Below, one piece after another: positions 13,739 to 37,700 of a stretch of 64,000 bases of DNA (its first letter is position 1; each line of letters begins with the position of its first letter). Source of the DNA: an uncultured Sphingobacteriales bacterium (GTDB lineage Bacteria > Bacteroidota > Bacteroidia > CAILMK01 > CAYYUA01); contig CAZLQF010000003.1 of NCBI GenBank assembly GCA_964561545.1, positions 74,775 through 138,774 of the forward strand, read 5' to 3'. The translations under genes and the position numbers were made by a program. Below the pieces are notes generated by a model that had not been told where the DNA came from, did no database searches, and was given only the letters and a program-made list of their open reading frames with translations.

Positions 13739-16700
13739 CTATTCGATACTAATTAACATTTGTTGTTCAGATTGTTCGTCAATCCATAGTTTAAGAATGA
13801 ATACACCAGAGGAATAACCATGCTTGGCGGGGTCGAACTCAATCTGATGTTTACCTGCCGCTTGCTCTTCATCTATTAGGGTTGATACGGTTCTACCTGT
13901 TTGATCCACTACTTGCATTTTAACTGTTTTAGCATTGGGAAGCTCGTAATCAATGTTAATGGCCTGTTTAAAAGGATTGGGATAAGTTGCTAAATCAATT
14001 GAATTAGCAAGCTGTTGATCAATACTTGTTGCAATATCTACCGTGTCTGTTGATTGACTTGAACAACCTGCATCAGTTTCAACACTGAGGGTTATTGGGT
14101 ATTGCCCGCTGTTATCATAAGTATGAACGGGATTGACCTCAAATGAAGATGATCCATCACCAAAATTCCATTCGTAAGATGCATAGGTATTGTTGGCTGT
14201 ATTCATCACTACCTGGCTACCATTTTTATCAATGCTGAAATTGCTATTGGGGGTTTCATTCACCGTTACCATTTTGGTAGCAGTATCCGTGCAATTGTTA
14301 TTTGATTCGGTTGTTACTAATGAAATATCCAAATCACCGGTATTATTAAATGTAACGTCAGGGTTTTCATCTGTGGAAGTTTGACCGTTATCGAAATCCC
14401 AATCATAGCTTAAACTTCCAGCGCCTCCTTGCGATGAATTGGTAAAGGTTACAGCCTCATCCGTACAAATTAATTGAGGTGTTTGGAAATTAGCACTCGG
14501 AGATTCTGTAATATTTAGGTTTTGGCTAATGGTATCAGCACAGCTAAACGTTGGGGATTTTGCGATGTATTGCACATTGTAATTGCCTGAACTTGTGAAT
14601 TCATGCTTGGGGTTGGGTTGGTTGCTAAAAGCTCCATCCCCAAAATCCCAGGTGTGAGCAAGGCTGTCTCCACTGTAGTTGACCTGGGTATTGAAATTGA
14701 TTAATTGATTGCTGCAATCTCCATCATTAGAAAGATTAACAATTTCCGGATCGGCATGTATGGTTAAACTTTGGGATTTAGAATCTGTACAATTCGTAGA
14801 ATCAGTAGTTGTTGTTAATGTTACTGTGTAATCATTAGCTGTGCTGTAAGTAATCGAAGTATCTTTAGCGTCAGCAGTCGTATTGCCTAAATCCCAGTTG
14901 TAATTCAAAGATTCGTTGCCTTGATACTGGCTATTGTCATTGAACTGAATTGTACTTCCCTGACAGGCATCATTGGGTGCGGTAAAGTTAGCACTTGGCT
15001 TTTTACCGACAAGAATAGACTTGGTAAGAGAATTTTGACAAGCTGATTGTGACGGAATAGCATTCAATTGTACTTGATATTCACCTGCTACAGCGTATGT
15101 ATTTGATGCATTGGGTTGGTTGTCTGTAGTACCATCACCAAAGGACCAGTTATAATTTACGGATCCCGATCCTGTAAATGAGGTTGCATTGTTAAATTGT
15201 ACCGGGTTACTTTCACAAATAGAAGTATTGCCAACAATAAAATCTACTTGTGGCGTAGCATCCACTGAAATCTGTTTGGTTTGAGTGGCTATACAGCCAC
15301 TATCAGTAGCAACGGATAATGCCACATTGAAATTACCTGACGAGGAATAAGCATAATTGGGATCCTTTACTACTGAAGCATCCCCATTACCAAAGTTCCA
15401 CTCATAATTGGGTGATAATCCTTGATTGGTTGTTTGGTCGATGAAGTTCAGGGTATCACCTTGACAATATTGACTGCCAAGGATTGTAAAATCAGTGTTG
15501 GGGGTAGGATCAACGCCTACGGTTTTAGTAATGCTGTTAGAACATCCTTTGTTCGATGTTGCTGTAAGGGTAACATCGCGATTTGTAGCTGTATTGTAGG
15601 TCTGTGTGCCGTTAATATCCGTTGATGTTTGGCCATTGCCAAAATTCCATTGATAACTCAGTGAGCCGGTAGATATGGAAGAATTATTATTGAATGTAAT
15701 GGATTGATTTTGACAAGTTGTATCAAAGGCAAAATCAACCTGTGGTTTGGGAGCTATTTGAACGTTCTTGGTAGCCGTGTCTGCGCCGCAGCCTTGTTTA
15801 GAAGTGAGTACCAATTCCACATCGTAATTGCCACTTTGCCCGTAGGTATGAACCGGGCTTCGATTAGAAGCAGTATTTCCATCCCCGAAATCCCAGCTTG
15901 AAGTGGACATTTGGCTGGATAAATTACTGTTGTTATTGAATTGAAGGTTAACCGGGCAACTGTCGGCAAGGGCAAAATTAGCCTGAGGGCCGGGTTCTAT
16001 GTATAAGTAGTTGGTAAAACTGGTATCACAAGCACTCAATAAATTGACTTTGACGGAGATTTCAAAAAGGTTGTTGCCTTCGCTTGGAGAAGCAACATAC
16101 ATCAGTTGCGCATCGGCATTGGTGGTAGCGGGCGTAAAATTGGTGTCCTGGGCACCGCTTCCTGCCATTGTTTCGAATTGGATTTCTGAAATCTCCCATT
16201 TATTTCCATATTCACTGTTTGAAAAATTGCCAGGAGCAGGGAATTTGTAAGTCATGGTATCGCCAACACAAGCCGAATCGGGGTTGGCCATGGTTTGATT
16301 GCCGCTCACACCATTAAATGGGCTGCCTTCCATAAAGCTTGTAGTAGCATCTCTGGAAATGGCGTTAGCACTTACACGAGAACTTGTACAAACTTCCGGA
16401 TAATTGAACTGTGGATTGGGTGCCCCTACATTGGGGTTCCCACAAGTAAAATTCGAAGCATCATTGTCATCGAGGCTTCCCGTTCTTATCACATTAGATC
16501 CGATATTGCAAGCATTGGTGCCGCCACCGCTCCATTGATTATTGAGGGAAATATTGAAACCATTGATGGTTGGATTAAAGTTTTGAAGATTAGATTGAGA
16601 CCAGCCCCAAGCAACAAAATCCACCACTTCGCCTTGGTCATCTATGATGATGGCCCAACCTGGTACATTGGGGTCCCATACAATATTAGACCCCCATGGA

Positions 16701-19126
16701 TTGGGCCCACCTGCATCAGTTCTGTACAACAATTGATCTTTTGAAATATTGCCAAGGTTCCATAAAGTTGGGTTGACTTGATTAATGTCCGTAGCACTGT
16801 TACTTACAGCGACCACCCAACCACTGGCGTCTACTGCATCGTCTGAGACATTTTGAATTTCTATTGAGTCATCTAAGCCCAATGCGTTCTCGGTGATCAA
16901 TAAAGTCTTTTTGGGGCTTGAAGCGGCTTCTACATAAAAGGTGGTATCTTGGTTAAAAGCACTGGTTGTATAAGTATTGCCGGAGTTAGCGATAAAGTTT
17001 CCTCCTGTTGCACTGTCATACCAATGATAGAAGGATGTGTTGGATGAAGTTGTGAATTTGGGTGCTTTACCTTTACAGAAGGTATCATTATTAACCGTAG
17101 GTACTTGGGGTGTAAAAGGAACAAAGATCCCTGTGGAAAAGGTGTCATTGCTGAGGTTATTGTCTTCTTGAAGGCTGGTCCAGGTTTTAAAATTATAGTT
17201 GCTACCACCTTGAGAAAGGTCAATAGAATTATTAAACGTATAATTGATGGTGTCTCCGGGACTAAAAGGCGAATTAAGCATGTAGGATTCACTGACTGAA
17301 GTATTGCTACCCAATTGATAACCCACCGGCACCATTGTATTAGCAGGTATGGTTAGGTTACCCTTGTTTTCAAAAACAACTTTCACAGATTCATTGCTCG
17401 TTAAACCGCAAGTTGATTCAGGCTTAAGCAATTGGCTGATGCCTACATCACCAATTTCAGTAGTAAAGCTATCAACCGCGCAATTAGTGGCTTTACCCAC
17501 ACTGTTGAAAGGCACTACATTCCAATAATAGGTGGTATTCAGGGATAAATTTGAATTTGTAAGTGAATATTGAAAAGTAGTAAATGTATCTACCAAAGCT
17601 GCTTGACTTTGATTCTGTACATTGGTGAAGTTGCTATCCAAATACAACAAAAAGCCGTTTGCACTTCCTCCTGATATACCTGTATTAGTAGACCAATTCA
17701 ATGTAGAATCGACAAGGACGCCATTTGCATCAGCTGGAGGATATGATTTTATAGCACACAATGGGGGGCTGGTAGATTTGTATTGAATCTCAACGGCAAA
17801 ACGGAAGGGATTTGCCGGTGCAAAATCAAACCAATTTGGACTTCCTGATGGTGAGGTGAAGAAATAAGCTCCTTGCCTTGGCGGATTTTCATTCTGAAAT
17901 TTAAAAGTAACATTATTGGTGCCAACTTGCCTAACGCCAACAAAGAAATCACCACTTACCTGAACTGCGGAATCTAATTGAATCAGGGCTTGCCCGGCTA
18001 CTGTTTGTAAAGTATCCGTTTCGTAAAGCAAGGCACCGGGTGTTGCTTGAGCAGTCGCATCCCAAACACCAATTTGATAATCAAGGCCAGCATTATCAAA
18101 ATTGACATTAACCTGAATGATACTGTCGGCCGTTGGAGTATTGAAATTTGCTACAAAGTCGCCAGTAGCACCATTAAATCCTACTCCTCCCGGGCTCAAA
18201 GGTTGAGCAGGATACACATAAGATTCATTGTTATTGGTTACCTCCTGAACCACTGAAATAGCGTTATTGGTATTGTTAGAATCGTTTGGTACTGAAACCG
18301 TAACGGTATCTGTGCCTAAATTCGTTGGTGTAAAACTGGGATTGGTAAAGGTTACTGTGAAAATATCTCCAGAATTAAAAGTAGGAATATTTACGGTGCT
18401 TGTAAAATTATTTGCCCCAGTTATGTCAAGAGTTACAGGCACATTGGATTGGGATACACCATTGTTCACAACCCTTGCCTGTACTTCATGATCATTGTTG
18501 ACTCTGATTTTACCAAGGGTATAGTTATTGGTAACAGCTAAATCAGGTTTTAAAGTATCGTAAAGAAAATCATCAATGAATACCTCAAATGCACCAACTT
18601 GTAAATGGCGAAGGGCTATGTGTTCATTGTTACCAATCAAACTTGTATTGGTAAGGGGAACCGTGAACTCCTGAAAGCTCCCGTTTGGCGGATTGACTGT
18701 ATCTATAGGGATATAGCCTGCTATATTTGAAGTATCGGGCATAACCCCAACTTCTATTAGTTCATCACCGCTTGCATCTTCATCACTGGCTTTAAAAGTG
18801 ACAGATTTACCACCATTAGGTAGATCCGTAAATTTAGGCGAGATCAAAAAGGTTTGGTTGGCATCATTCAACTCTATAAGGTTAGGTGTTGTTGGGGGTG
18901 CTATTCCGGCATCATTGGTATTTACGGTCCTCGTACCAGAAGTTTCTACACCTCCATTCTGAACTATGTTCCAGCATGGACTAAGCGAAGGAGCTGTTAC
19001 ACTGTCGAATCCATGGCTATAGGGATAAGTATTACCGGAACAAGTGGTTTGCGCTTCAAGATTGAAAGCTAATAAACTTGAAACCACAAAAATCACTAAC
19101 GCTTGGGTAAAATTTTTAAATTCCAT
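13739..19126 (-). CDS. giant secreted cell-surface protein with about 8 PKD repeats, a lamin-tail-like domain, and a T9SS type A C-terminal sorting domain
   Basis: 1795 aa with an N-terminal signal peptide. Repeated W[DN]FG[DN]G ... YxxSGxYxVxL units (PKD). An LLITEN...IEIQNVSD...VDASGW segment (lamin-tail-like). C-terminal ~80 aa (YPNPFKQAINIDYELP...GVFILKL) match the Por secretion sorting domain (type A CTD). Confidence 0.85.
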   Translation of the reverse strand: MEFKNFTQALVIFVVSSLLAFNLEAQTTCSGNTYPYSHGFDSVTAPSLSPCWNIVQNGGVETSGTRTVNTNDAGIAPPTTPNLIELNDANQTFLISPKFTDLPNGGKSVTFKASDEDASGDELIEVGVMPDTSNIAGYIPIDTVNPPNGSFQEFTVPLTNTSLIGNNEHIALRHLQVGAFEVFIDDFLYDTLKPDLAVTNNYTLGKIRVNNDHEVQARVVNNGVSQSNVPVTLDITGANNFTSTVNIPTFNSGDIFTVTFTNPSFTPTNLGTDTVTVSVPNDSNNTNNAISVVQEVTNNNESYVYPAQPLSPGGVGFNGATGDFVANFNTPTADSIIQVNVNFDNAGLDYQIGVWDATAQATPGALLYETDTLQTVAGQALIQLDSAVQVSGDFFVGVRQVGTNNVTFKFQNENPPRQGAYFFTSPSGSPNWFDFAPANPFRFAVEIQYKSTSPPLCAIKSYPPADANGVLVDSTLNWSTNTGISGGSANGFLLYLDSNFTNVQNQSQAALVDTFTTFQYSLTNSNLSLNTTYYWNVVPFNSVGKATNCAVDSFTTEIGDVGISQLLKPESTCGLTSNESVKVVFENKGNLTIPANTMVPVGYQLGSNTSVSESYMLNSPFSPGDTINYTFNNSIDLSQGGSNYNFKTWTSLQEDNNLSNDTFSTGIFVPFTPQVPTVNNDTFCKGKAPKFTTSSNTSFYHWYDSATGGNFIANSGNTYTTSAFNQDTTFYVEAASSPKKTLLITENALGLDDSIEIQNVSDDAVDASGWVVAVSNSATDINQVNPTLWNLGNISKDQLLYRTDAGGPNPWGSNIVWDPNVPGWAIIIDDQGEVVDFVAWGWSQSNLQNFNPTINGFNISLNNQWSGGGTNACNIGSNVIRTGSLDDNDASNFTCGNPNVGAPNPQFNYPEVCTSSRVSANAISRDATTSFMEGSPFNGVSGNQTMANPDSACVGDTMTYKFPAPGNFSNSEYGNKWEISEIQFETMAGSGAQDTNFTPATTNADAQLMYVASPSEGNNLFEISVKVNLLSACDTSFTNYLYIEPGPQANFALADSCPVNLQFNNNSNLSSQMSTSSWDFGDGNTASNRSPVHTYGQSGNYDVELVLTSKQGCGADTATKNVQIAPKPQVDFAFDTTCQNQSITFNNNSSISTGSLSYQWNFGNGQTSTDINGTQTYNTATNRDVTLTATSNKGCSNSITKTVGVDPTPNTDFTILGSQYCQGDTLNFIDQTTNQGLSPNYEWNFGNGDASVVKDPNYAYSSSGNFNVALSVATDSGCIATQTKQISVDATPQVDFIVGNTSICESNPVQFNNATSFTGSGSVNYNWSFGDGTTDNQPNASNTYAVAGEYQVQLNAIPSQSACQNSLTKSILVGKKPSANFTAPNDACQGSTIQFNDNSQYQGNESLNYNWDLGNTTADAKDTSITYSTANDYTVTLTTTTDSTNCTDSKSQSLTIHADPEIVNLSNDGDCSNQLINFNTQVNYSGDSLAHTWDFGDGAFSNQPNPKHEFTSSGNYNVQYIAKSPTFSCADTISQNLNITESPSANFQTPQLICTDEAVTFTNSSQGGAGSLSYDWDFDNGQTSTDENPDVTFNNTGDLDISLVTTESNNNCTDTATKMVTVNETPNSNFSIDKNGSQVVMNTANNTYASYEWNFGDGSSSFEVNPVHTYDNSGQYPITLSVETDAGCSSQSTDTVDIATSIDQQLANSIDLATYPNPFKQAINIDYELPNAKTVKMQVVDQTGRTVSTLIDEEQAAGKHQIEFDPAKHGYSSGVFILKLWIDEQSEQQMLISIE

Positions 19127-19279
19127 AAATATTTTTTTTAAGTATTAAGTTGATTGCTATAATAGGTGTTTTATTTAACTTAAATGGACGAAATTATCTT
19201 TTTATTAGTTGTATTGACGGAGCTAAATTAATAAAAAAACAGCATTTGTAATTAAGATTGTTTTTATTGGTAATGAACT

Positions 19280-19669
19280 TTACTGAATAAAGCGAATGGT
19301 TAACGGATACCGGTAAGGGATGCCATCGTTGGCTTTGATGCAAGCTACGATCATGAATGCAAAATAAAGGATGGTTATAATACCTGTTAAAGGAAGGGTA
19401 AAAATCATAGCAAATGGGTGGGCCGGGAAAGCAACTGTTAATCCTAAGGCAACTATAACAATGACGTAAATAAATACACTGATCTGAAAATTAAGGGATT
19501 CTTTACCCTGATCATCTACCAAGGGATGTTCATCTTTTTTTACCATCCAGATGATGAGCGGGCCAATGAAGTTACCAAAAGGAACAATAAAGCCGGCAAA
19601 GCCCAATAGATGACATAACATGGCCAATGTATTAGCTTGTCGGTTGTTGTTGGTAATGTTTTGATCCAT
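19280..19669 (-). CDS. small 3-4 TM membrane protein (DUF4870-like)
   Basis: 129 aa, hydrophobic helices. The LCHLLGF...GPLIIWMVKKD pattern resembles DUF4870. Lies 195 bp downstream of dprE2-like on the same strand. Confidence 0.5.
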   Translation of the reverse strand: MDQNITNNNRQANTLAMLCHLLGFAGFIVPFGNFIGPLIIWMVKKDEHPLVDDQGKESLNFQISVFIYVIVIVALGLTVAFPAHPFAMIFTLPLTGIITILYFAFMIVACIKANDGIPYRYPLTIRFIQ

Positions 19670-19864
19670 AATTAATTTTAATGACGTAAAGGTACAAGTT
19701 TTTAAGCTTAATTAAGTGAAGATGATGAAATAATTAAAGAGAATTGAAATACTAAAACGATCATCATGGTCTTGTAATCAATTAAGGAAAAGGCTTTTAC
19801 AGGGGGATTTAAAAATTAAGTCAGGATTGAAGGCATCACTTAACTTAAAGGCACCTAAAGCGTT

Positions 19865-20605
19865 TTATAATTTCATTTTTTTAAAGATGTTTTCCGGAAT
19901 CAATTTGATGATCAGCATGATGTAGCGCCAATACCATTTAGTATAAAGATGGTTTCGCTTTTTTTGTTGCGCTTTGTAAGTATCTTTGGCTACTTGTTCA
20001 GGGGTAGCTGTTATAACAGGTGGTAAATCTTTGCCCTCGGTCATTTTGGTTCTCACAAATCCTGGCTTAACCGTTAATACATGGACGCCTTTTTTAGCCA
20101 TTCGGTTTCTTAGGCCTGAAAGGTAGGCGGAAAAGCCTGCCTTAGAACTGCCGTAAAAATAATTACTCTGGCGTCCGCGATCACCTGCTACGGAGCTAAT
20201 ACCAATAATGAATCCGTCACCTTGCCTTTCGAGTTCTTTGGCAGCAAGGTTGAGGATGTTTACGCAAGCATTGTAGTTGGTTTCGATGATTTTACGAGCC
20301 TCCTTAGCATTTTTTTCTGCCTCTTCCTGATTTCCGAGATAGCCGATGGCACTTACAACTCCATAAGGTTTAGGATCAAGGTTGAGGTAAAAGTCAATAT
20401 GACTTTCATAATTAAGGCCATCAAATTCAACGGCCTGGGCCCTTATTTCATAACGGATTTCGAGGTCCTTCACTTCATGCTCCAATCTTGAAGCATTCCT
20501 TGCTGCTAAATACAGGTTGTAACCCTTTGATGCATAGAGCCGATAAATGGCTTGGGCAATGTCCGAGGTAGCGCCTAAAATCAAAATGTATTGTTCGTCA
20601 TTCAT
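19865..20605 (-). CDS. DprE2-like SDR (putative polyprenyl-phospho-2-keto-pentose 2'-reductase)
   Basis: 246 aa. N-terminal ILILGATSDIAQAI glycine motif. The SSVAGDRGRQSNYFYGSSKAG...VLTVKPGFVRTKM core and the C-terminal RYIMLIIKLIPENIFKK tail closely parallel M. tuberculosis DprE2 ([23 protein letters not shown]...VIRPGQVRTRM...RYVMMVLRHIPRSIFRK). Start overlaps the upstream gene stop by 4 bp. Confidence 0.8.
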   Translation of the reverse strand: MNDEQYILILGATSDIAQAIYRLYASKGYNLYLAARNASRLEHEVKDLEIRYEIRAQAVEFDGLNYESHIDFYLNLDPKPYGVVSAIGYLGNQEEAEKNAKEARKIIETNYNACVNILNLAAKELERQGDGFIIGISSVAGDRGRQSNYFYGSSKAGFSAYLSGLRNRMAKKGVHVLTVKPGFVRTKMTEGKDLPPVITATPEQVAKDTYKAQQKKRNHLYTKWYWRYIMLIIKLIPENIFKKMKL

Positions 20606-21915
20606 AAGCCGAGTCTTTCCGAGAGGGTTGAAGTAAATTTTCCATGGGGATCATATTGGCTTTTAATCTCCTTGAACCTGTTTAATTCAGGATAAGAGGC
20701 TGAAAACACGGATTCAGGCATTCGGGCATCTTTGGCGAGGTAGATCCTACCATCGTATTTAAGCACCAACTTGTCCAATTCCTTTAAAAAAGCAAGCACT
20801 TCATCATTGACCGGGAAATCCAAGGCCAAGGTATAACCTTCTGTTGGAAATGAAAGCAATCCGTCCTGCGGGCCGAACAATTTTAAAACCGTCAAAAAGG
20901 ACGCCAGCCCCTTCTTGACAATTTTTTCCAGAATCACCGGAATGCCTTCATAGCTTTCTTTAAGGGGCAGTACGAATTGATACTGGACAAAACCTCGCTT
21001 GCCATACATCCGGTTCCAGTGTTTGATCTTGTCCAGAGGATAAAAAAAGGGGTTTAGCGAGGTAAGAGTTGATTGATTATGAGCAGCTCGATGGTAATAA
21101 AGGAAATTAAAAGACCGGATGCTTAGGTCATTTAACACAAATGCCGGCAAGTAAAAAGGCATGTTGATGGACTTACCTTCAATGGGGGATTGAGTGCTGG
21201 AAAGAGGGCTAACCTCATCTTTTGTAGCATGTTCCCCAACTGAAAGGACGCTTCTCCCAAATTGCTTGCCTTTGGCAAGGCAATCCAGCCAGGCTACCGA
21301 ATAGGTGTAATCCTTGGTTTCATCAAATAGCTTGAAGATTTGGTCCAGGTTGTTGGCCTTGTAGGTGGTTGCTTTAATAAAAGGCGTTTCTACTGGTTTA
21401 AGTTGAAAAGTAGCTTCCAGGATTAATCCTGTTAGGCCCATTCCTCCACATGTGGCCTGGAATAATTGCTGATTATGCTCAGGACCACAGTTGACCAATG
21501 ATCCATCAGCCAAAAGAAGCTTAATATTCTGCACATGATCGCCAAAAGTTCCTTCTTTGTGATGGTTTTTTCCGTGAACATCCGAAGCAATGGCTCCGCC
21601 TATCGTAACGTATTTAGTACCTGGTGAAACCGGCAAAAACCAGCCTTTGGGTACCAATTGCTCAATAATTTCAAGAAGACTTAAACCTGCTTCACAGGTA
21701 AGGATGCCATTTTGTTGGTCAAATGCAATAAAACGTTGGTAATGAAGGGATGATAAAACATTGGCTTGAAGCGAGGCATCGCCATAGGAACGGCCAAGCC
21801 CCCTGGGAATTAAACAATCCAGTTGATTGATTTGATGCCTGGCTTCATCCTCAAACGAAAAATCATTTACCTCAGCCTCAATGGTTGGAAAGTTGCCCCA
21901 ATTGGCGATTTGCAT
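20602..21915 (-). CDS. DprE1-like FAD-dependent oxidase (putative polyprenyl-phospho-ribose 2'-oxidase)
   Basis: 437 aa. PRGLGRSYGDASLQ, GTKYVTIGGAIASDVHGKNHHKEGTFGDHV, GGMGLTGLILEATFQL, GFVQYQFVLP, FLTVLKLFGPQDGLLSFP and RIYLAKDARM match the M. tuberculosis DprE1 blocks (GLGRSYGD, GGAIACDIHGKNHH, GGNGLTGII, LQYQFVIP, FLNVFKLFGP...LSFP, RLYTAKDSR) almost position for position. Confidence 0.85.
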   Translation of the reverse strand: MQIANWGNFPTIEAEVNDFSFEDEARHQINQLDCLIPRGLGRSYGDASLQANVLSSLHYQRFIAFDQQNGILTCEAGLSLLEIIEQLVPKGWFLPVSPGTKYVTIGGAIASDVHGKNHHKEGTFGDHVQNIKLLLADGSLVNCGPEHNQQLFQATCGGMGLTGLILEATFQLKPVETPFIKATTYKANNLDQIFKLFDETKDYTYSVAWLDCLAKGKQFGRSVLSVGEHATKDEVSPLSSTQSPIEGKSINMPFYLPAFVLNDLSIRSFNFLYYHRAAHNQSTLTSLNPFFYPLDKIKHWNRMYGKRGFVQYQFVLPLKESYEGIPVILEKIVKKGLASFLTVLKLFGPQDGLLSFPTEGYTLALDFPVNDEVLAFLKELDKLVLKYDGRIYLAKDARMPESVFSASYPELNRFKEIKSQYDPHGKFTSTLSERLGL

Positions 21916-22123
21916 TTAAAAATGGTTTGATTATGAAAGAAGAACCCATGCTCCCCAGCATTTATTCATCCAAGTCACTATTGGTTTTCATATTCTTTCA
22001 TCACAGCAAAATTGTTTTAGGACTTATATGTTCTTGGTAGTAATAAAATAAGTTGCTAAGAGGCTTGGCTGGCATCTCAATGTTTGCCTTTTCCATCATT
22101 TTCTCAATACTAAGAACTAACTA

Positions 22124-23068
22124 CTATTCCCTTAAGTCAGCCGTTTTCTTATTTTCCAGGTACCAATCGATGGTTTCCTTAAGGCCTTCTTCAAAGGTAT
22201 ATTCAGGTTGCCAATTGAACACTTCGTTCATGCGGCCAACATCCAAAACCTTTCGATGAACGCCATTGGGCATGGACGTATCCCATTCCACTTCGCCTTG
22301 GAAGCGGGTAAATTGCTGGATGGTATCTGCCAATTGTTTGATGCTGATGCCTTCACCGGTTCCGATGTTGATAGGCTTGAGGCCATGCTCAAGTTCAATA
22401 GCCCTTACAATAACTTCAGCGGCATCTTTTACGTACAGGAATTCCCGAATTGGGGAGCCATCGCCCCATAAGGTCACTTTTTCTTTTGCATCGGTAAATT
22501 TCTTGATGAGGGCAGAAAGTACATGAGAGCGATATTCGGTAAACACATCATGAGGCCCGAACAGGTTGGTAAGGATCAAATGATTGGATTCAATGCCGTA
22601 TTGCTTGTAGTATGCATTTTGCGCTACTTGTTGGATTTTTTTACTAATGCCGTATGATTCTACTGTATCATGCAAAGGGCCATCCCAAAAATTATCTTCA
22701 TTGAGATCGCCGGTCAAGTGGCCAGGATAAGCACAGGCGGAGCCAATTGGTAAAATTTTCTTAACCCCCCAGTTACCGGCTGCTTCAAAAGCATTCACCG
22801 CCATTTTGGTATTTTTCTGAAATATGGTGGCTGGTTCTGCTTTATTGATACCAATTCCTCCGTAATAAGCAGCAGAATGGATCAATACGTCAAGGGCTCC
22901 GTGGTTTTGGACCAGTTCCCGCATGTAATCATCAACCCCTTCATTGGTTTCCAGGTTGAAATCCTTGCTTCGGGGTGCAAATACTTGATACCCTTTCGTT
23001 TCTGCTTTTTCTACGATATGGCGGCCTAAAAATCCATTGCCGCCTGTTACTAATATTTTTTTAGGCAT
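22124..23068 (-). CDS. GDP-L-fucose synthase family NAD(P)-dependent epimerase/reductase (Fcl-like)
   Basis: 314 aa. ILVTGGNGFLG, NLFGPHDVF, LWGDGSPIREFLYVKD and MPNGVHRKVLDVGRM parallel E. coli Fcl (NLYGPHDNF, VWGSGTPMREFLHVDD, KPDGTPRKLLDVTRL). Confidence 0.7.
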   Translation of the reverse strand: MPKKILVTGGNGFLGRHIVEKAETKGYQVFAPRSKDFNLETNEGVDDYMRELVQNHGALDVLIHSAAYYGGIGINKAEPATIFQKNTKMAVNAFEAAGNWGVKKILPIGSACAYPGHLTGDLNEDNFWDGPLHDTVESYGISKKIQQVAQNAYYKQYGIESNHLILTNLFGPHDVFTEYRSHVLSALIKKFTDAKEKVTLWGDGSPIREFLYVKDAAEVIVRAIELEHGLKPINIGTGEGISIKQLADTIQQFTRFQGEVEWDTSMPNGVHRKVLDVGRMNEVFNWQPEYTFEEGLKETIDWYLENKKTADLRE

Positions 23069-23981
23069 TTTTCCACTCGCTTTTGATGTAAATATGTCTT
23101 AAAATCTTGATCAATTCCTGGATGCCTTCATCCATGTCTATTTTCGTTTGATAGCCCAGTTTTTTGATCTTTTCATAGCTGACCTCGTAATCCCGTTTGT
23201 CCTTGTCTTCTCCAATATCGGCTTCATGGAGGTAATAATCGATGTAGTCATTGATCTTTTGAGCCACCTCTCGCTTGGTATAGTTCATGGCTTCGTTGCC
23301 TACGTTGTAGGCGCCTCCTTTCATTTTTTCCAGGTTGTCAATGGTAAAGGGATAAACATTGGCTGCATCCCATACATGTAAAAATGTTCTCCGGAAGTGG
23401 CCTTCATAGAGAATGATCTGCCGATTGTGCAATGCCTGGTAAACGAAATCATTCACCATCAAATCTAAGCGAAGTCTTGGAGAGATGCCAAATACAGTGG
23501 CAAAACGAAGCCCAACACCTCCATAATCGGTTATCATATTTTCTGCTTCCCATTTGGTAGAGCCGTATAAGGTCAATGGATCAATGGGTGTTTCTTCCGT
23601 ACAAATACCCTCTACTTTACCATAGGTAGAACCGGTAGAGGCAAAAATAATGTCGCGGCCATCCAATAAATCGATCAAGTTTTTGGTGCCATCCACGTTG
23701 ATGGTTCTTGCCCGGTCAGGGTCGGAAGCACAAGCTGGGTAGCCAACAATGGCGGATAAGTGGATCACCATATCGCAACCCTTAATGGCCTCTTTTAATT
23801 GATTTTTATCCCGGACATCTCCGGTTATAATGGATAGGTTGGGATCAGTGGCAAAGTGAAGGATGGGTTTAACCCCCCACATGAAAGTATCAAATAAAAC
23901 TACTTCATATTTTCGTTCAAGGAGCATGGGGATCAGGGTGGATCCAATGTAGCCCGCCCCTCCGGTTACCAATATTTTCAT
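23061..23981 (-). CDS. NAD-dependent epimerase/dehydratase family protein
   Basis: 306 aa. ILVTGGAGYIGS Rossmann motif and YGSTK (YxxxK) catalytic motif. Overlaps the downstream Fcl-like gene by 8 bp, suggesting an operon. Not a canonical Gmd. Confidence 0.7.
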   Translation of the reverse strand: MKILVTGGAGYIGSTLIPMLLERKYEVVLFDTFMWGVKPILHFATDPNLSIITGDVRDKNQLKEAIKGCDMVIHLSAIVGYPACASDPDRARTINVDGTKNLIDLLDGRDIIFASTGSTYGKVEGICTEETPIDPLTLYGSTKWEAENMITDYGGVGLRFATVFGISPRLRLDLMVNDFVYQALHNRQIILYEGHFRRTFLHVWDAANVYPFTIDNLEKMKGGAYNVGNEAMNYTKREVAQKINDYIDYYLHEADIGEDKDKRDYEVSYEKIKKLGYQTKIDMDEGIQELIKILRHIYIKSEWKNA

Positions 23982-24541
23982 TGTTGATTCAAGGTTTTGT
24001 TATTGATTGATTTGGTTGTACAAATAGGCCTCGAAATTACAATTGGTTGGGGTAATTTCAAAAATTTTGCATTGAGGCGATGATTTTCTAAAGGGTTAAC
24101 CCTGCTAATTTAAAAAAGTTGTATCCTGGCCTAATTTAAAGTTGTTATTGAGCGCTTTTTTAACTGATTGATTAACATTTGATAATGGTATTCATAATTG
24201 ATAAAGCGGAAAGTGGGGGTATTTTGTTGTTGCTTAGGCTTGCTTTTTTTCGGATAGCTCATTGATATAATCCGGTTTAGGGCATTGTATGGGAGGTCCT
24301 AAATGAGTATTGAGTTATCCATTGAATCCGGTCAAACAATTGTTGGCAGTATTGTGGTTAGAATTTTGGATCTTGTTACTGTAGCTGGCATTGTTCACTA
24401 TAATTGATAGGGCAATTGGTTTACTTTGGGGCATTTTTAAAAAGCGCCTATTCGGAGAAGGACCAATAGAATTATTTCGGCTGCTTACCTGAAATAACCA
24501 CGTCCACTAAATAAAACTCGGTAAAGTAGTACCTATTGGGG

Positions 24542-25210
24542 TTATTGTAAATTATTTAAACGGTATTTCAGGTTTTCAACGATTTTGGATTGCTCCTTAA
24601 GGCTTTTACTTTCATCTTTTCGCTGTTGCTCAATTTGCTTAAGCTTTTTTTCCGAGTTTTGAATGGTAGTAGTACATTCCTCAATGGTTTCCTTATGTGC
24701 TTGGGCATTGTTCTTGAGTTCATTCATTGTTTTCTCATGTTCTTCTAAATTACTTTGGGCATCTTCAAGTATTGCTTTGGTCGCCTCCTTTGCTTTGGCT
24801 AATGCAAAATCATGAATGAGCTTTTTGGCTGCTTTGTAATTAGGATGGTCAAATGCTACATATGCATTTTCAAAAGTTTGAAAGAAAACGGTCATAGAAA
24901 CGCCTTGGTCTTGAGACGCTAACTTGGTATAGATCCATAAAGGTTCCTTGCTTATCGAGGGAATTTGTACTTCCTTCCCTGTTACTTGCTTTCTGGACTT
25001 ATTAACGTCATCGTTGTCAAAGTCTTTTAAACGCCTTTTCCATTGCCGTTTAATAGGCCTACGGTCTGCCTCAGGGATTGCTACTTTAATGCCCGGCTGG
25101 GTTCCTTTTTCCATTAATTCCCTAACGAGGGTTACTTCTATTGCTTGGCTGCTAACCAAAGATGGAAAAATAATCAACAAGGGAAGGATTGATAAAATTA
25201 TATATCGCAT
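24542..25210 (-). CDS. secreted hypothetical protein with C-terminal coiled coil
   Basis: Signal peptide. Lys/Glu-rich heptad-like C-terminal half. Confidence 0.45.
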   Translation of the reverse strand: MRYIILSILPLLIIFPSLVSSQAIEVTLVRELMEKGTQPGIKVAIPEADRRPIKRQWKRRLKDFDNDDVNKSRKQVTGKEVQIPSISKEPLWIYTKLASQDQGVSMTVFFQTFENAYVAFDHPNYKAAKKLIHDFALAKAKEATKAILEDAQSNLEEHEKTMNELKNNAQAHKETIEECTTTIQNSEKKLKQIEQQRKDESKSLKEQSKIVENLKYRLNNLQ

Positions 25211-25570
25211 GATTTTAAGATTGAAAACATAAAATTAAAATAAAAAAGTACATTGAAAACCTTTGTTGAGGTGCTTTGGGTGAATTTGAAAAGAAGCGGG
25301 ATGTCTTTATGAAGTCTATTTCTTTATGGAACTATGTTCTTTTTTAATGATTTTACTTTCCCCTTCATCCCTTTAAAAAAGGGAGTTTTTTACAGGATTG
25401 AATGGGTTGGTAACAATTTCTCTACTTGCATTTAAGGATGCAGGAACTGAATGCCGTAACCATTCTCCGCAAAAAGCGGGTCCGGTTCAGTTAGGAAAGG
25501 GCCGTAATCCTGAATTGGTGATTTTAGGATTAAAAAACGTGTTTATCCATTCTTCAATAGCCTAAAAATA

Positions 25571-26977
25571 TCAGTTAGCTAACTTGGATGAATGTTTATC
25601 AAAAGCCATAATTTCTGGGTTAGCTTTTCGCTGAATGGTTAGAAGTTGATCGGCTTTATTCCATCGGTTAGCCCGTCCCAATTGACGTGTGATTTTTCCA
25701 ATTTTTTCAAAATCAATATCAAGGGTGTTGAACTCCTTTTTTGAATTGATTTTATTCAATGCATGATCTGCACCTTTGCTAAGGGCTAAATTCACAACCT
25801 CAGGAGTGAGGGTATCTTTAAGAGGTTGATCCAGAACCTTTCGAATCTTTTTAACAAGGCGATCTTTATGGCGGCTGTTCGTGTGATTTAATGCAATGAC
25901 GGTATTGGTGTCATGAATGTCACGGACAATGCTGGTTCTGAATCCATTCCATTTACCGTGGTGGTAAACGAGCTTTTGGTCATTTTCATATTTAATGCGG
26001 AATCCAAAACCATAAGATACCGGATAGCCAGAACTTACAGTCCCACGGCTGAATGCTTCTTTCTTGAGATCAGCACTCAGAAGTTTGTTATTGTAAAGCG
26101 CTTGGTCCCATTTATAAAGGTCTTTAATGGTTGAATAAACCCCTTTATCCCCGACTATGCCATCGTTAACATTTTTTTCTATCTTCCTATACCCCCACCG
26201 GCTCCAACGGTAACCTACCAACTTGTTGGAATGGTCTTTTTTAATAGCTGTACTGTGAACAAAAGTATTTTCCATATCCAATGGTGTGAAGATGACCTGA
26301 TCCAGATACTGGTCAAACCTCTGCCCGGATACTTCTTCCACAATTGATGCCAATAATACATAGCCTGTATTTGAATAGTGAAACCTTCTTCCAGATGCAA
26401 AATAAAGGGGTAATTTGTGTTCGATTAATAAATCAATCACATCATCATTGTAGGGTGCTTGTTCTTTTTTCCACTTGTGCTCGAGTAGCCACATGTAATT
26501 GGGAAGACCGGAGGTATGGTTCAAAAGATCCCGGATGGTCATTTGAGAATAGGGGATTTTTGGGAAATAATCTATAACCTTGTCTTCAAATTCAATTTTT
26601 CCTTGCTCTTTCAGCATCATAATGGCCATGGCTGTAAATTGCTTACTTAAGGAAGCAATCTGGAATACGTGATCTTTCTTTAGCGGTTCTCCTTTTTTAA
26701 AGTTTTTGCTCCCCACTGCTTTTGAATAAATAGGGGACCCTTTGTAACTGACCAAGATGCTCCCATTAAAATCGTAATGTTGTTGAAAGTGTTTTACAAT
26801 GGAATCGATCTTTTGCGTTTTTGAATCGTAAAGGATTTTGGCAATACCATTTTCATGAGCTTGTGATAATTTTTCAGGTTTGGTGGATTTCAGCGTATCC
26901 TTGGAGTCTATGCGGCCAGTAAACGATATGCTTAACAAGAGGATAAGCAAAGGAAAATATCTATAGTGAAAATGCAT
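25571..26977 (-). CDS. serine hydrolase, beta-lactamase/PBP (class C-like) family
   Basis: Signal peptide. SxxK active-site motif (QIASLSKQF), YSN-like motif (HYSNTGY) and the HHGKWNGF region typical of AmpC-like esterases. Confidence 0.75.
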   Translation of the reverse strand: MHFHYRYFPLLILLLSISFTGRIDSKDTLKSTKPEKLSQAHENGIAKILYDSKTQKIDSIVKHFQQHYDFNGSILVSYKGSPIYSKAVGSKNFKKGEPLKKDHVFQIASLSKQFTAMAIMMLKEQGKIEFEDKVIDYFPKIPYSQMTIRDLLNHTSGLPNYMWLLEHKWKKEQAPYNDDVIDLLIEHKLPLYFASGRRFHYSNTGYVLLASIVEEVSGQRFDQYLDQVIFTPLDMENTFVHSTAIKKDHSNKLVGYRWSRWGYRKIEKNVNDGIVGDKGVYSTIKDLYKWDQALYNNKLLSADLKKEAFSRGTVSSGYPVSYGFGFRIKYENDQKLVYHHGKWNGFRTSIVRDIHDTNTVIALNHTNSRHKDRLVKKIRKVLDQPLKDTLTPEVVNLALSKGADHALNKINSKKEFNTLDIDFEKIGKITRQLGRANRWNKADQLLTIQRKANPEIMAFDKHSSKLAN

Positions 26978-27054: not shown

Positions 27055-29199
27055 TCAAGTGTTTTGAAAACTTGCTTTTAATTGTTGGCCTAAATTCCAG
27101 TTATAATCTATTAACACCAGGAAAACGAAAATCATAAATGGAATAGTATTGAGGGTATAAATAACACCGTAAAAATCAAAATATTGATTGACCAAATGCG
27201 TAATAATAGAAATTAGGCACAAGGCAATCCCGATCCAGTATTTTTTATGAAATAAGAAGGCGTAAACAAGGAAAAAACTGTAATAGTAACAAGTGAGCTC
27301 AAATGCTATTGGAATTAAGCCCGTGCCTAAAACAGCGGCTTCCCATGGTTTTATACGGGGTAACACCCTAATTAGTAAAGCAAGATACAATAAAATAGCT
27401 GCCCAATAAATGGATTTGAGGTCTTTGAAATTTTCCAGCCGTTGCTCTTTCCATTTTGCAAAAGGATCTGGCTTTGCTGGTTCCCTTGTTTTTTCTGCTC
27501 TATCTTGATGGCGGTATCCAAGTATGGTTTTTAAGCCCATGTGGTTGCTTAAGGGAGTTTCCAGGTGTTTTTGGCTGTTTGCGATAAAACCCTTCCAATT
27601 TTTAAACCCTTCGTTGACCCACAATGACAGAGGAATTAAAACTATGAAAGCTGCTAACAATCCTTTAAACACTTGCTGATATTGATTTTGCAGGGACCAT
27701 TGCTTTTGGTAAAAGGTGTCTGAAATGCCTTTAAGTGCTACTCCCACAAGGGTGGCTCCCGGAAAAATTCTTAAAAAAGCAGCATAAAGCAACATAAACC
27801 CACCTCCAGCATTTTTTTGCTTTTTAAGCAAACATATTCCTATTACAAGAAATACCAGCCAATTTTGTCTTAAAAATGAGCCACCGGTCCAATAAAAGTT
27901 AGCTACTAAATTGGTGCCCCAGAAAATTAAAGCCAAGCTAAATACTTCCCAGCCAAATGCCCAAGCTACAAGGATCCACATGATAATGATCAGTACGGGA
28001 TCGATTAAGGAGAGCCAGAAAATTTGGGTTTTATTGATGGATGCAGTATTAGTCAAAGTTTTGCCAGCTATGGTCCAAATAGGTGTAGCATTAAACCCAT
28101 GATCCTGATGCATTTTTTTCCACCGGTCTTCACTCATTTGATCCCTGAACCATAAAGCATCGGATTTGAATGCTTCCCACCTCTTGCCCAATTGCTCTTT
28201 AATGGCTGTCGAATCATCCAATACTTGGGTGGCAGGAATCATGCTATTATCAGATAAATCTCTGATGTGCCTCGATCTAACGCTTTTTTTATAGCCATGT
28301 TCCCAATCTGCTATAACCGAAGCATCGTAAAGGGATACATAGCCAAGATCGGGTTGGTATTTGGATCCCATGTAGTAATGAAAAAATTCCCAATAGTGGT
28401 AAAAATTGCCGTTATGAAATGTAGTCAAATTAAACCAGGCAAAACATGAGACAGTACCCAGGATGATAAACTCTGTTCCTAAATTACGGGATGCTTTGAT
28501 AGATTGCTTTTTTGATGTGAACCAATTCCAAACAAGCCAAATTAATCCGATTGTTGCCAATCCAGTCTTGACAAACCACAATCTTAAATCTTCACCTGCC
28601 TCTACCTCTTGGTTGGTGTCATTTGGAGTAGGCTCTGAACGGTCTGCGGTGTCAGGTTTCTGGCAGTAAGCTTTTAGTTCGGAGATGGAATAATTGCCGT
28701 CTCCCTTTATAGGGGTAATTAGTAAATAGCGAATGGGGGTTGTTTGATTGAGGTTGATATTTCGGGTATGAAGTCCGTATTGATTCTCTTGCTTAGGAAT
28801 TTTGGCATGTCCTTTCCAGTTATTGGTATCGGTGGCAAACTGAAATTGGTACACATCATCCGCATCGGCCTGGAGCTTAAAAGCACTAATTGGATATACT
28901 TGATGAAAGTCTATGAAAATAGCAGATTTCTTGTTTTTTAATTGGACTGCTGCGGGTAATATCCATCTTGATCCTTCGAAAGTTTGATGACCATCAACAA
29001 TTTTGGTCAATTGGCCATCGGTATTAGTCCCTTTCACGGTAGCATTTTGCGCAAGGTTTTGATGGGAACACTCAAACGTGTCTTCAATTATATCATTTGT
29101 TGTACCTTGATCAGCCACAACAGGTTTACCCACTAAAAAGCAACAAGAGAAAAGAAGAAGGTAGGTTATAATATTGGCATCCAATTGCTTCAAAACCAA
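27055..29199 (-). CDS. large polytopic membrane protein with N-terminal discoidin (F5/8 type C)-like domain
   Basis: 714 aa. Signal/anchor, a ~190 aa beta-sandwich-like N-terminal domain (GSRWI...VYPISAFKLQ...YSISELKAY), then at least 10 predicted TM helices with a large first extracytoplasmic loop containing YHYWEFFHYY. No catalytic family assigned. Confidence 0.6.
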   Translation of the reverse strand: MVLKQLDANIITYLLLFSCCFLVGKPVVADQGTTNDIIEDTFECSHQNLAQNATVKGTNTDGQLTKIVDGHQTFEGSRWILPAAVQLKNKKSAIFIDFHQVYPISAFKLQADADDVYQFQFATDTNNWKGHAKIPKQENQYGLHTRNINLNQTTPIRYLLITPIKGDGNYSISELKAYCQKPDTADRSEPTPNDTNQEVEAGEDLRLWFVKTGLATIGLIWLVWNWFTSKKQSIKASRNLGTEFIILGTVSCFAWFNLTTFHNGNFYHYWEFFHYYMGSKYQPDLGYVSLYDASVIADWEHGYKKSVRSRHIRDLSDNSMIPATQVLDDSTAIKEQLGKRWEAFKSDALWFRDQMSEDRWKKMHQDHGFNATPIWTIAGKTLTNTASINKTQIFWLSLIDPVLIIIMWILVAWAFGWEVFSLALIFWGTNLVANFYWTGGSFLRQNWLVFLVIGICLLKKQKNAGGGFMLLYAAFLRIFPGATLVGVALKGISDTFYQKQWSLQNQYQQVFKGLLAAFIVLIPLSLWVNEGFKNWKGFIANSQKHLETPLSNHMGLKTILGYRHQDRAEKTREPAKPDPFAKWKEQRLENFKDLKSIYWAAILLYLALLIRVLPRIKPWEAAVLGTGLIPIAFELTCYYYSFFLVYAFLFHKKYWIGIALCLISIITHLVNQYFDFYGVIYTLNTIPFMIFVFLVLIDYNWNLGQQLKASFQNT

Positions 29200-34773: not shown

Positions 34774-37700
34774 ATGAATCTTTTAAAGAGAGTAGTTATT
34801 GGTTTAACGATGTTAATCGTTGCGGGGTTATTGAATGTATCAACAACCCAAGGCCAATGCACTAATATAGATTTCCAGGCTAATAAAACTAAGTCTTGTG
34901 TAAGTCAAATAACATTTAGTGCCACGGGCATTCCTGATAACAGCACCCTTTATTGGGATTTTGGAGAAGGAGAAATACAACGAAATGATACCTTCATTAA
35001 AGAATTTTTCTCAGAAAAAGGCTTTTATGATGTTGATCTTCGAGTGGTTTTGCCCAGTGGAAATGAGTGCAACATTCAAAAATCTGATTTTATTCAAATA
35101 GGGGTTAATCCCAATGCGGATTTTCAATTAAGTGATACATTGCTGTGCAATGGTTCGGGGAGTGTTACTTTTACGGATACTAATAAAGCCATCAACGAAA
35201 GAGATTGGGTAATCGGGGGACAGGATTACACCGATGCTGATTCTCAAATAACTCACAACTTTTCAAGTACAGGCTATAAAGACGCTTTTTTAATTACCAA
35301 AGATTCCTTGGGATGTAACTACTACTTACAAAAAGATTCTGTAGTTTATATACCACCTCAAGTCGGTGTTGATTTTAGTACCAGTGACGCCACTTCTGGT
35401 TGCACTCCGCTGAACAATATTCAAATCACCCCCAGCTTGAATCAAGGCGGACAAACTTTAACCCAATACAAATGGTACTTTCCTGGTTCAGATGTTGATT
35501 CTGACTCTAGCTCCAGTGATCCTGTACCTCCGGCAATATCTTATGGATCCCGAGGTACTTATGATGTTACATTCGAGGTCGAAACTGCCCTGAATTGTAC
35601 TTATTCAACCACAAAAAGCGGTTTCATACAAGCCGGAGATTCAATCGGGGTGGATTTTTCAACCAATACCGACAGTATTTGTTCTGGAGGCTCAGTAACA
35701 TTAGTCAATGAGTCGGATAGTTCAGAAGCAAATGCCCCTGGCGGTTTTAATTGGGGCCTTGATGGGGGTACTGTTGTTTCCTCATCAACCGATACGCAAG
35801 AGGTCAAATTCAATGCAACCGGTAGCAAAAATATAAGTTTGAATTATAGCGACAATGGCTGTTCTAATAACAAGACAGCAAATAATTTTATTTTTATAAA
35901 AGGTGTAACAGCCGATTTTAATGCCGATAGTATCCGAAATTGTCAACCTCCATTGACTACTTATTTCACCGATCAATCAACTTCCAACTCGGCTGGTTCC
36001 ATTACCAGTTATGAATGGACCTTTTTTGACAAAACGGGCGATAATGTGCTGGGAACCTCAACCAGTCAAAATGACAGTTTTACTTATGATTCTACAAACG
36101 GATTTGGCTCCTATGATGTAAAACTTAAAGTTACCCATTCCAACGGCTGTTCTGATTCAATAACTAAAACTGAGGTGGCAACCATTGAGGAACCGAGGGT
36201 GCAGTTTAATGCTGAACATTCAGCCGTTTGTCCTCAGGATACCGTTAAATTTTCAAATAACACGGAAGCCTATTCTAAAATTGAAGAAAATGAAAAATTT
36301 GATTGGTATGTTTACGATGGAGGGCTCAACTTAATTGATTCAGCTAAGAATCCAGAAGAGTTTGGTTACCGGGTGCATGATTCATTGGGTAATTATAGTT
36401 TCAAACTCATTACCCATGATGGTGTAGGTTGTAACGACACGCTATTTGATACCAATACAGTTCAAGTAAAAGAACCAGCCATCAATTATACAATTGGTCA
36501 AAAACAAGTTTGCAGTGGGGTAAGTGTTAATTTTACAGCTTCTGATTCCAGCAATCTTCCACTCGACTATACTTTTGATTTCAGCAATAAAGATACCTTA
36601 TTTTCGAGGAATGGGAGCGATGTTAATACTGCCTTCCCAGCCCCTGGAACTTATGACGTAAAATTGACAGGAAAAGCTGATACTTTTTGTACCGATTCCC
36701 TTTCAAAAACGGATAGTGTTAAGATTAATAGTTTAGCAGGTGATTTTTTAATAGATAGTACCAAGGGCTGCAGCCCGTTGACAACCAAAGTGAAGCCATC
36801 CAATTTTCAAATCAGCAATACCAACAACAATGATTCAATTCAATACACCTGGAGCGGATCTTCCGGAGTCAGTTTTTCAAATAAAACCGGAAAGGTAGAT
36901 ACCTCAAATATAGATTCCATTACTTCGGATGTTACCGTAACCGGTAACGGTAATTTTACCATCACGCTTGATGCTAATAATTTAGAAGGCTGTTCTCAAA
37001 CCATCAGTAAAACTAATGCCATTAGTTTGGGGACCAATGCAAGTTTTAATATGCCTTCCAATGCTTGTTTGAATGATACCGTACAACTGTCCAACCAATC
37101 GCCTATAGATGACAACTCTAAATGGCTTAATGACAACCCTAACCTAGAATTCCTCCCTTTTGATATCGCAACGGATCCTGAAATTTCTTTTTCCGACACT
37201 GGCACTTATGAAGTAACCCTTGCTTCTACTTCTCAATTAGGATGTAAGGACACGATAACAGATAGCATTACGGTCGAAAAAGTTACTGTAGATTTTTCAT
37301 CTCAGGATACGTTTTATACGTGTGCTCCTCAAATTGTTAAGTTTCAAGGTACAGCCAATAACGCAACGCAGTTCAGTTGGCATTTTGGGGATAATACTGG
37401 AACAGAAAATACGTCATCCCCCTCCAATAACCATCTGTATGAACAAAATACTGGCGGTACAGGGCAAGGTGGATTTGATGTTACGCTTATAGGAACTAAT
37501 AGCAATGGATGTAGTGATACCCTTGTTAGGGACAATTACATACAGATCATTGGTCCTGCTCCTGAATTTACCATGAATAACAATAAAGGTTGCGAGCCAC
37601 AAACCGTAACTTTTAATGATAGCAGCAAGAATGTTGAAACTTTTTATTTCGATTATGGAAGAGGGTTGCCAACTGATTCCAATGAAATCAACCCACGTAC

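Follow-up and report, generated by a model that had tools for sequence, protein, structure and literature searches.

The question raised by this locus is whether five adjacent genes with related-sounding annotations make up one pathway or are simply neighbours. In this study, the layout, homology and conservation of these genes were investigated in a stretch of 64,000 nucleotides (64 kb, hereafter the window) from an uncultured Sphingobacteriales bacterium, contig CAZLQF010000003.1. They encode two extended short-chain dehydrogenase/reductases (SDRs), a DprE1/DprE2-like pair and a small membrane protein, and an initial annotation had read them as an extended operon and a compact five-gene glycan-precursor module. 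Our data make it likely that they are three independent units, namely the two SDRs (pair A), the DprE1/DprE2-like genes (pair B) and a DUF4870 gene as a bystander, which are neighbours only in this Bacteroidota lineage. The genes and the spacers between the units are as follows.

23981..23061, minus strand: SDR306, an extended SDR of 306 aa, first gene of pair A
23068..22124, minus strand: Fcl-like, a GDP-L-fucose-synthase-like SDR of 314 aa, second gene of pair A
21916..22123: spacer between pair A and pair B, 208 bp, AT-rich (GC 0.33)
21915..20602, minus strand: DprE1-like, a putative FAD-dependent polyprenyl-phospho-ribofuranose 2'-oxidase of 437 aa, first gene of pair B
20605..19865, minus strand: DprE2-like, a classical SDR and putative 2'-keto reductase of 246 aa, second gene of pair B
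19670..19864: spacer between pair B and the DUF4870 gene, 195 bp, AT-rich (GC 0.29)
19669..19280, minus strand: DUF4870/HOTT-family small membrane protein of 129 aa, the bystander gene

With the list of open reading frames (ORFs) and the minus-strand sequence, an overlap of 8 bp was observed between SDR306 and Fcl-like (23061-23068) and one of 4 bp between DprE1-like and DprE2-like. Every coordinate in the initial annotation, from the five genes to the overlaps and gaps between them, was reproduced in this way, and its gene-family calls were found to be correct, with family-model matches for all five proteins. Judged by their sequences, the five ORFs are real and not chance, because they are long and have strong full-length family matches. 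Every part of the locus belongs to already known kinds.

Co-conservation of the five genes, chosen beforehand as the test of the proposed module, was examined from both the DprE1 and the SDR306 side, and the DprE pair was found to occur alone. From the DprE1 side, one genome per GTDB species was considered, giving 80 loci at 45-55% identity with flanks of up to 10 kb, which were searched by tblastn with all window proteins and whose ORFs were clustered to find conserved partners. Orthologues of SDR306, Fcl-like or DUF4870 within 10 kb of DprE1 were detected in none of the 80 genomes, the two SDRs yielding solely generic-SDR matches of 20-36% identity. The partners that are conserved around DprE1 are of another kind: in 47 of 72 loci DprE2 follows within 300 bp, in 36 of 69 a UbiA protein of 294 aa precedes DprE1 by no more than 300 bp, and in 17 of 67 a HAD-IB phosphatase lies downstream, while two families of ~550-aa multi-pass membrane proteins were noticed at 13 and 8 loci. 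On the decaprenyl-phosphate phosphoribosyltransferase model NF008978, which has a cutoff of 207 bits, the UbiA neighbour scores 209.6 bits. Two JGI contigs with 94% identity in DprE1 keep the whole five-gene order, and the next-closest relative, at 59% identity, displays fusA-DprE1-DprE2 with none of the other three genes.

From the SDR306 side, homologues that are 64-69% identical were disclosed in seven phylum-level groups, as named by their source (Vampirovibrionales, Oligoflexia, Planctomycetes, Dadabacteria, Marinimicrobia, Cloacimonetes and Bacteroidales), and SDR306 is far more conserved than DprE1. The contexts considered were those at 86%, 83%, 70%, 69% and 64% identity together with ten metagenome loci at 45-52%, a scan that shows the conservation of the pair and is too small for statistics. 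Where the downstream sequence is readable, an Fcl-like gene immediately follows the SDR306 homologue in nearly all loci; in L099 and L106 (L numbers designate loci in other genomes), the best Fcl-like match is elsewhere in the locus. The same 8-bp overlap recurs at 83-86% identity. Outside near-identical relatives (94-100%), which alone have the five-gene order in common, no DprE1, DprE2 or DUF4870 gene was found near the SDR306 homologues, and the neighbours of pair A vary from locus to locus. The independence of the units is drawn from this pattern, because each pair is conserved as a pair with no cross-conservation between the pairs.

An operon of all five genes serving a single glycan, with the DUF4870 protein as an Rv3789/GtrA-like flippase or anchor, is given a small chance by us. 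The genes do share one strand with short gaps, and their arrangement is retained in the 94-100% identical contigs, but the 94% relatives are too close to inform on selection for gene order. The precedent for such an operon is that the small membrane protein Rv3789 is encoded next to dprE1 in mycobacteria (PMC11127046, also established knowledge); against it stand the absence of DUF4870 and SDR-pair orthologues from all 80 DprE1 loci and the fact that, near-identical relatives aside, the SDR pair is in no locus accompanied by DprE genes. The module and extended operon proposed initially are not upheld by these comparisons. The main outcome of this study is the correction of an over-reading, as co-directional neighbours with related-sounding annotations do not make a module unless they are co-conserved, which is not so here.

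The 129-aa protein, which would form a unit with no demonstrable link to either pathway (19669..19280), bears on the same alternative. Its sole Pfam match is PF09685, DUF4870 (E 1.3e-38), with no Pfam match to GtrA, so that the initial description of it as DUF4870-like and not GtrA-like was accurate. DUF4870 is the uncharacterised HOTT family, distantly related to MamF and to plastid Tic20 (PMC11628618), and the protein of the window shares with this superfamily the PF09685 match and the membrane layout, which by eye begins with an extended hydrophobic segment, followed by a charged loop and another two helices. It differs from MamF in having no magnetosome context and no known function, and it has no relationship to either the GtrA or the SMR flippases that have been suggested for Rv3789. 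A homologue was found in 0 of 80 DprE1 loci and, among the SDR306-homologue loci, only in the 94% relatives. Membership of the HOTT/Tic20 superfamily and this distribution speak against the earlier suggestion of a non-orthologous Rv3789 counterpart and favour the hedge that accompanied it, that the gene is merely a neighbour.

Concerning transcription, each pair can be expressed alone, because the pairs occur separately in other genomes. The within-pair overlaps of 8 and 4 bp, as against the AT-rich gaps of ~200 bp, would fit three units, and the 208-bp spacer is a probable boundary between two transcription units. Neither a terminator nor a sigma-70 promoter was found inside the spacers, in a scan that gave fewer sites than shuffled sequence and is uninformative; the strict Bacteroidota motif TAnnTTTG is likewise absent from them. 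The sole relaxed Bacteroidota -7-like match (TAnnTTT) is in the 195-bp spacer, 18 nt before the ATG. An Rfam search of 19000-25700 returned no match.

The identity of pair B is given by family models and solved structures alike. The DprE1-like protein consists of an FAD_binding_4 domain and an ALO C-terminal tail in Pfam, and its best NCBIfam match by far is DprE1, NF053785 (438.8 bits, E 3e-131). It aligns with both the M. smegmatis and the M. tuberculosis DprE1, and near full length with the solved mycobacterial DprE1 4AUT (E 5e-86, residues 35-436 against 58-466). The HGKNHH and AKD motifs are kept, as seen in the pairs DVHGKNHH/DIHGKNHH and YLAKDAR/YTAKDSR against the solved enzyme, and we take the His of the former and the Lys of the latter, by the numbering of M. 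tuberculosis DprE1, to be active-site residues. The DprE2-like protein is an SDR that scores above the cutoff of PRK07102 (335.7 bits against 267), and in the PDB only one match falls below 1e-15, namely the DprE2 chain (21gq_C) in the DprE1-DprE2 complex of M. tuberculosis (E 3e-33).

Pair B (21915..19865) most likely functions as a two-step DprE1/DprE2-type 2'-epimerase, a reading based on the DprE1/DprE2 homology and on the UbiA/HAD neighbourhood in relatives. Its substrate would be polyprenyl-phospho-beta-D-ribofuranose and its product polyprenyl-phospho-D-arabinofuranose, a lipid-linked donor used in extracytoplasmic arabinosylation. The pathway described for such donors runs from phosphoribosyltransferase to phosphatase, DprE1/E2 and GT-C (Kelly et al. 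2024, PMC11127046), and the UbiA-DprE1-DprE2-HAD set found in the relatives fits that scheme and is, in our analysis, the cassette that a pathway to a lipid-linked D-arabinofuranose donor would call for. Like mycobacterial DprE1/DprE2 (Rv3790/Rv3791) and their Gram-negative counterparts in three-component pentofuranose glycosylation systems, the two genes adjoin and overlap, with the FAD oxidase first and the SDR reductase second, and show full-length similarity to the solved enzymes; many relatives of pair B lie in a UbiA-DprE1-DprE2-phosphatase cassette. Unlike mycobacterial DprE1, the protein of the window has Ala at the position of the benzothiazinone (BTZ)-reactive Cys (LALDFP against VCVDFP), and both proteins of the pair fall below the NCBI equivalog cutoffs for DprE1 and DprE2.

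A three-component pentofuranose glycosylation system comprises PPPRS, a flippase and a GT-C enzyme (GT136-like) (PMC11127046), and the window differs from such systems in having no UbiA, phosphatase, flippase or recognisable GT-C near pair B. Queries with 47 UbiA neighbours gave no tblastn match in the window and no UbiA Pfam match was recorded among its scanned ORFs; homologues of the HAD and large membrane proteins of the DprE loci were not found in the 64 kb either. The missing UbiA is not unusual, because in 16 of 65 loci a DprE pair likewise has no UbiA within 10 kb, and the UbiA-type phosphoribosyltransferase, the phosphatase and the membrane glycosyltransferase would be encoded outside the window.

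DprE1/DprE2-type epimerases, usually with UbiA, are common in Bacteroidota, Ignavibacteria/Chlorobiota, Nitrospirota and other phyla, and this wide spread points to unexplored D-arabinofuranose-type surface glycans outside Actinobacteria. Among the DprE1 loci, a few deviating arrangements were recorded as well. Eight loci (L022, L042, L043, L045, L047, L053, L061 and L064) have a solo DprE1 homologue, DprE2 and UbiA both being absent from the surrounding 10 kb. A 347-aa extended SDR, GalE/dTDP-glucose-dehydratase-like, lies divergently beside UbiA-DprE1 without DprE2 in two Flavobacteriales metagenome-assembled genomes (MAGs; L023:94-1137 and L027:8006-9049) and is a possible substitute reductase or epimerase that would act on the lipid-linked pentose. 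In two loci of Chloroherpetonaceae/Thermochlorobacteriaceae type, a 135-aa ORF without NCBIfam match is located between UbiA and DprE1, again with no DprE2 (L068:1005-1412 and L070:9591-9998), and could be a candidate for the phosphatase step.

For pair A, both proteins match PF01370 Epimerase, with E values of 6e-37 for SDR306 and 1e-44 for Fcl-like. The best solved relative of SDR306 is 6VO6/6VO8 (E 3.4e-78), with 131 of 300 aligned columns identical (~44%), and the next PDB match follows at E 5e-25. The entry 6VO6 itself bears the name 'putative sugar-nucleotide epimerase/dehydratase'. We take 6VO6 and 6VO8 to be Cj1427 of C. jejuni, a GDP-heptose C4-dehydrogenase, whose structures were reportedly described under these accessions by Huddleston et al. 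in 2020. The best PDB matches of Fcl-like are GDP-L-fucose synthase (GFS) entries, 7LL6 (E 1e-52, 182 bits) and the E. coli enzyme 1E6U (E 1e-47, 166 bits). The two Campylobacter heptose C4-reductases of the DdahC/MlghC pair, 7ANH and 7ANC, reach 106 and 89 bits respectively (PMC7949155), which places Fcl-like nearer to genuine GDP-fucose synthases than to the heptose reductases.

The conserved residues of Fcl-like agree with this placement. In GFS, Ser107/Tyr136/Lys140 form the catalytic triad and Cys109/His179 the epimerisation dyad (PMC7949155). In the alignment with 1E6U, S110/Y139/K143 of Fcl-like fall on S107/Y136/K140 and C112/H173 on C109/H179. MlghC/Cj1428 (Tyr/Arg) and DdahC (Thr/His) have neither the GFS dyad nor epimerase activity (PMC7949155), and Fcl-like differs from them in keeping the Cys/His dyad.

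In the Campylobacter pathway, Cj1427 acts first, Cj1430 then epimerises C3 and C5, and the GFS homologue Cj1428 reduces C4 (PMC10680097); Cj1427 holds tightly bound NADH that is recycled by alpha-ketoglutarate in a ping-pong mechanism (PMC10680097). The window resembles this pathway in that a Cj1427-like homologue adjoins a homologue of the GFS-family C4-reductase, and distant members of pair A likewise lie beside GDP-heptose synthesis genes; it differs in having no cupin C3/C5-epimerase gene and no heptose genes, and its substrate could be GDP-mannose. From this comparison, pair A (23981..22124) may be seen as a translationally coupled two-enzyme nucleotide-sugar cassette. The 4-keto intermediate most likely stems from a dehydrogenase and not a dehydratase, SDR306 acting as a Cj1427-type NAD-dependent C4-dehydrogenase that would need no Gmd, and the GFS-like partner probably supplies epimerisation and reduction alike, epimerising C3 and C5 and reducing C4 with NADPH. 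Because a 4-dehydrogenase homologue takes the place of Gmd beside the GFS-like enzyme, the product should retain its C6 hydroxyl, and we infer a non-deoxy, GDP-beta-L-configured sugar intended for a Leloir glycosyltransferase. A more specific version, in which pair A uses alpha-ketoglutarate and NADPH to drive a Gmd-independent conversion of GDP-mannose or GDP-heptose into a GDP-L-sugar, with the GFS-type enzyme replacing the cupin epimerase, is put forward tentatively and with considerable doubt.

The initial annotation had noted that a canonical Gmd is lacking, so that the substrate was open. The absence was confirmed, and the puzzle is largely resolved through the C4-dehydrogenase homology, the missing Gmd being explained because SDR306 reads as a C4-dehydrogenase homologue rather than a degenerate Gmd. 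To our knowledge, Campylobacter, which employs a separate epimerase, is the only source from which the combination of a Cj1427-like and a GFS-like enzyme has been examined biochemically. The pair is strongly conserved and uncharacterised in environmental bacteria, and could be an enzymatic route to L-configured GDP-sugars.

The surroundings of homologous pairs support GDP-sugar chemistry, because heptose genes stand beside the pair in L103, where it comes directly after HddC-like, HddA-like, GmhA, GmhB and FSA/transaldolase genes and precedes a true Gmd (498 bits) as well as a second Fcl. Inspection of translations also pointed to GmhB-like or FSA-like ORFs near the pair in L098, L100 and L104. 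The two loci at 83-86% identity have the pair flanked by a divergent YfhO-like membrane protein of 860-880 aa (L087:3214-5853 and L091:3561-6146) and GT2 enzymes, an arrangement suggesting that the sugar made by the pair is used for extracytoplasmic glycosylation in these genomes, and in a Bacteroidales MAG the neighbours are two GT2s and a methyltransferase. In the Vampirovibrionales locus, a 146-aa ORF with no Pfam match (L095:9953-10393) sits between the SDR306 homologue and its Fcl-like partner.

The locus L103 also bears on the view of pair A as a divergent Gmd/Fcl pair making GDP-L-fucose, which we regard as very unlikely. Both proteins match PF16363 GDP_Man_Dehyd, and a member of the cluster is named 'GDP-L-fucose synthase' by JGI. 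Yet L103 has the SDR pair in addition to a separate Gmd and Fcl, the gmd model TIGR01472, on which the 498 bits of the true Gmd in L103 stand out, is not among the 25 of 33 NCBIfam matches listed for SDR306, and Fcl-like reaches 233.1 bits on the GFS equivalog NF047922 against a cutoff of 500, with SDR306 as its partner in place of Gmd. What Fcl-like has in common with GDP-L-fucose synthase (Fcl/GMER/GFS) is the fold, the SYK triad, the dyad and the best PDB matches.

A further alternative would bring the two pairs together, with both extended SDRs acting on a lipid-linked pentofuranose and yielding, along with DprE1/E2, a doubly epimerised or otherwise new pentofuranose donor. It takes its appeal from ORF13 of Citrobacter youngae O2, which converts undecaprenyl-phospho-Ribf to Xylf and so demonstrates the epimerisation of a polyprenyl-phospho-pentofuranose by a GalE-like SDR, and from the gain and loss of epimerase genes beside such systems (PMC11127046). 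The 347-aa extended SDR beside UbiA-DprE1 without DprE2 in L023 and L027 is in keeping with it. We nonetheless hold this alternative to be highly improbable, as SDR306 shows ~44% full-length identity to 6VO6, crystallised as a GDP-sugar enzyme, Fcl-like is closest to bona fide GDP-fucose synthases, and pair A adjoins GDP-heptose genes in L103 and is never found with UbiA or DprE outside the near-identical relatives. Its specific form, in which the SDR pair would act on the polyprenyl-phospho-pentofuranose pool with DprE1/E2 in the manner of ORF13 for Xylf and give a doubly epimerised donor such as Lyxf, is barely conceivable to us. We know of no solved glycan in which Lyxf has been found.

Several points weigh against reading the locus as three independent units with the functions proposed here. 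Five co-directional genes with ~200-bp gaps and an order kept in a 94% relative make co-transcription possible in this genome, and a promoter or terminator was not identified in either gap. The DprE1-like protein is under its NCBIfam equivalog cutoff (NF053785, 438.8 bits against 500), as is the DprE2-like protein (NF053786, 194 bits against 250), and since the 64 kb hold no UbiA, the lipid substrate of pair B is assumed. For pair A, the equation of 6VO6/6VO8 with Cj1427 is our presumption, its mapping not being confirmed, and the dyad His is variable among more distant Fcl-like partners. Searches with homologues from related loci detected no Gmd and no GDP-heptose or GDP-mannose synthesis gene in the window, so that the substrate of pair A is not fixed between GDP-heptose and GDP-mannose.

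Beyond the five genes, the other scanned ORFs of the window are of housekeeping type or have no Pfam match, and none is a UbiA, glycosyltransferase or heptose/mannose activation gene. Upstream of pair A, a segment of ~1.16 kb (24180-25344) carries a 222-aa ORF (24542-25210, minus strand) with only weak coiled-coil-type Pfam and NCBIfam matches. The window shares this segment with the 100%-identical contig L086, and it is absent from the otherwise colinear 94% relatives L081 and L082; its flanks show no repeats pointing to a mobile element.

Further upstream, a 714-aa protein (29199..27055, minus strand) harbors a CBM32/discoidin-like domain at its N-terminus, together with ~12 helices that form a membrane domain without Pfam family. 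It has ~590 homologues, for example in Deltaproteobacteria, Polyangia and Gammaproteobacteria, all annotated as 'hypothetical' or 'discoidin domain-containing', and its invariant residues, which include H262, H268, H274, D347, D366-H367-G368 and D400, suggest an enzyme. This protein was considered as the missing GT-C of the DprE pair and was rejected: with an AF2 model of pLDDT 88.9, Foldseek against the PDB matched the lectin (CBM32/discoidin) domain only, hhalign against the membrane proteins beside DprE pairs elsewhere gave no relation, and neither in L107 nor in L108 does the homologue have DprE genes nearby.

Two large proteins with PKD repeats complete the features recorded in the window.

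13739-19126, minus strand: PKD-repeat protein of 1795 aa with a type IX secretion sorting domain
34774-39744, plus strand: PKD-repeat protein of 1656 aa with a type IX secretion sorting domain

Their C-terminal sorting domains are Por_Secre_tail and CHU_C, and such type IX domains identify the genome as one of the Bacteroidota.

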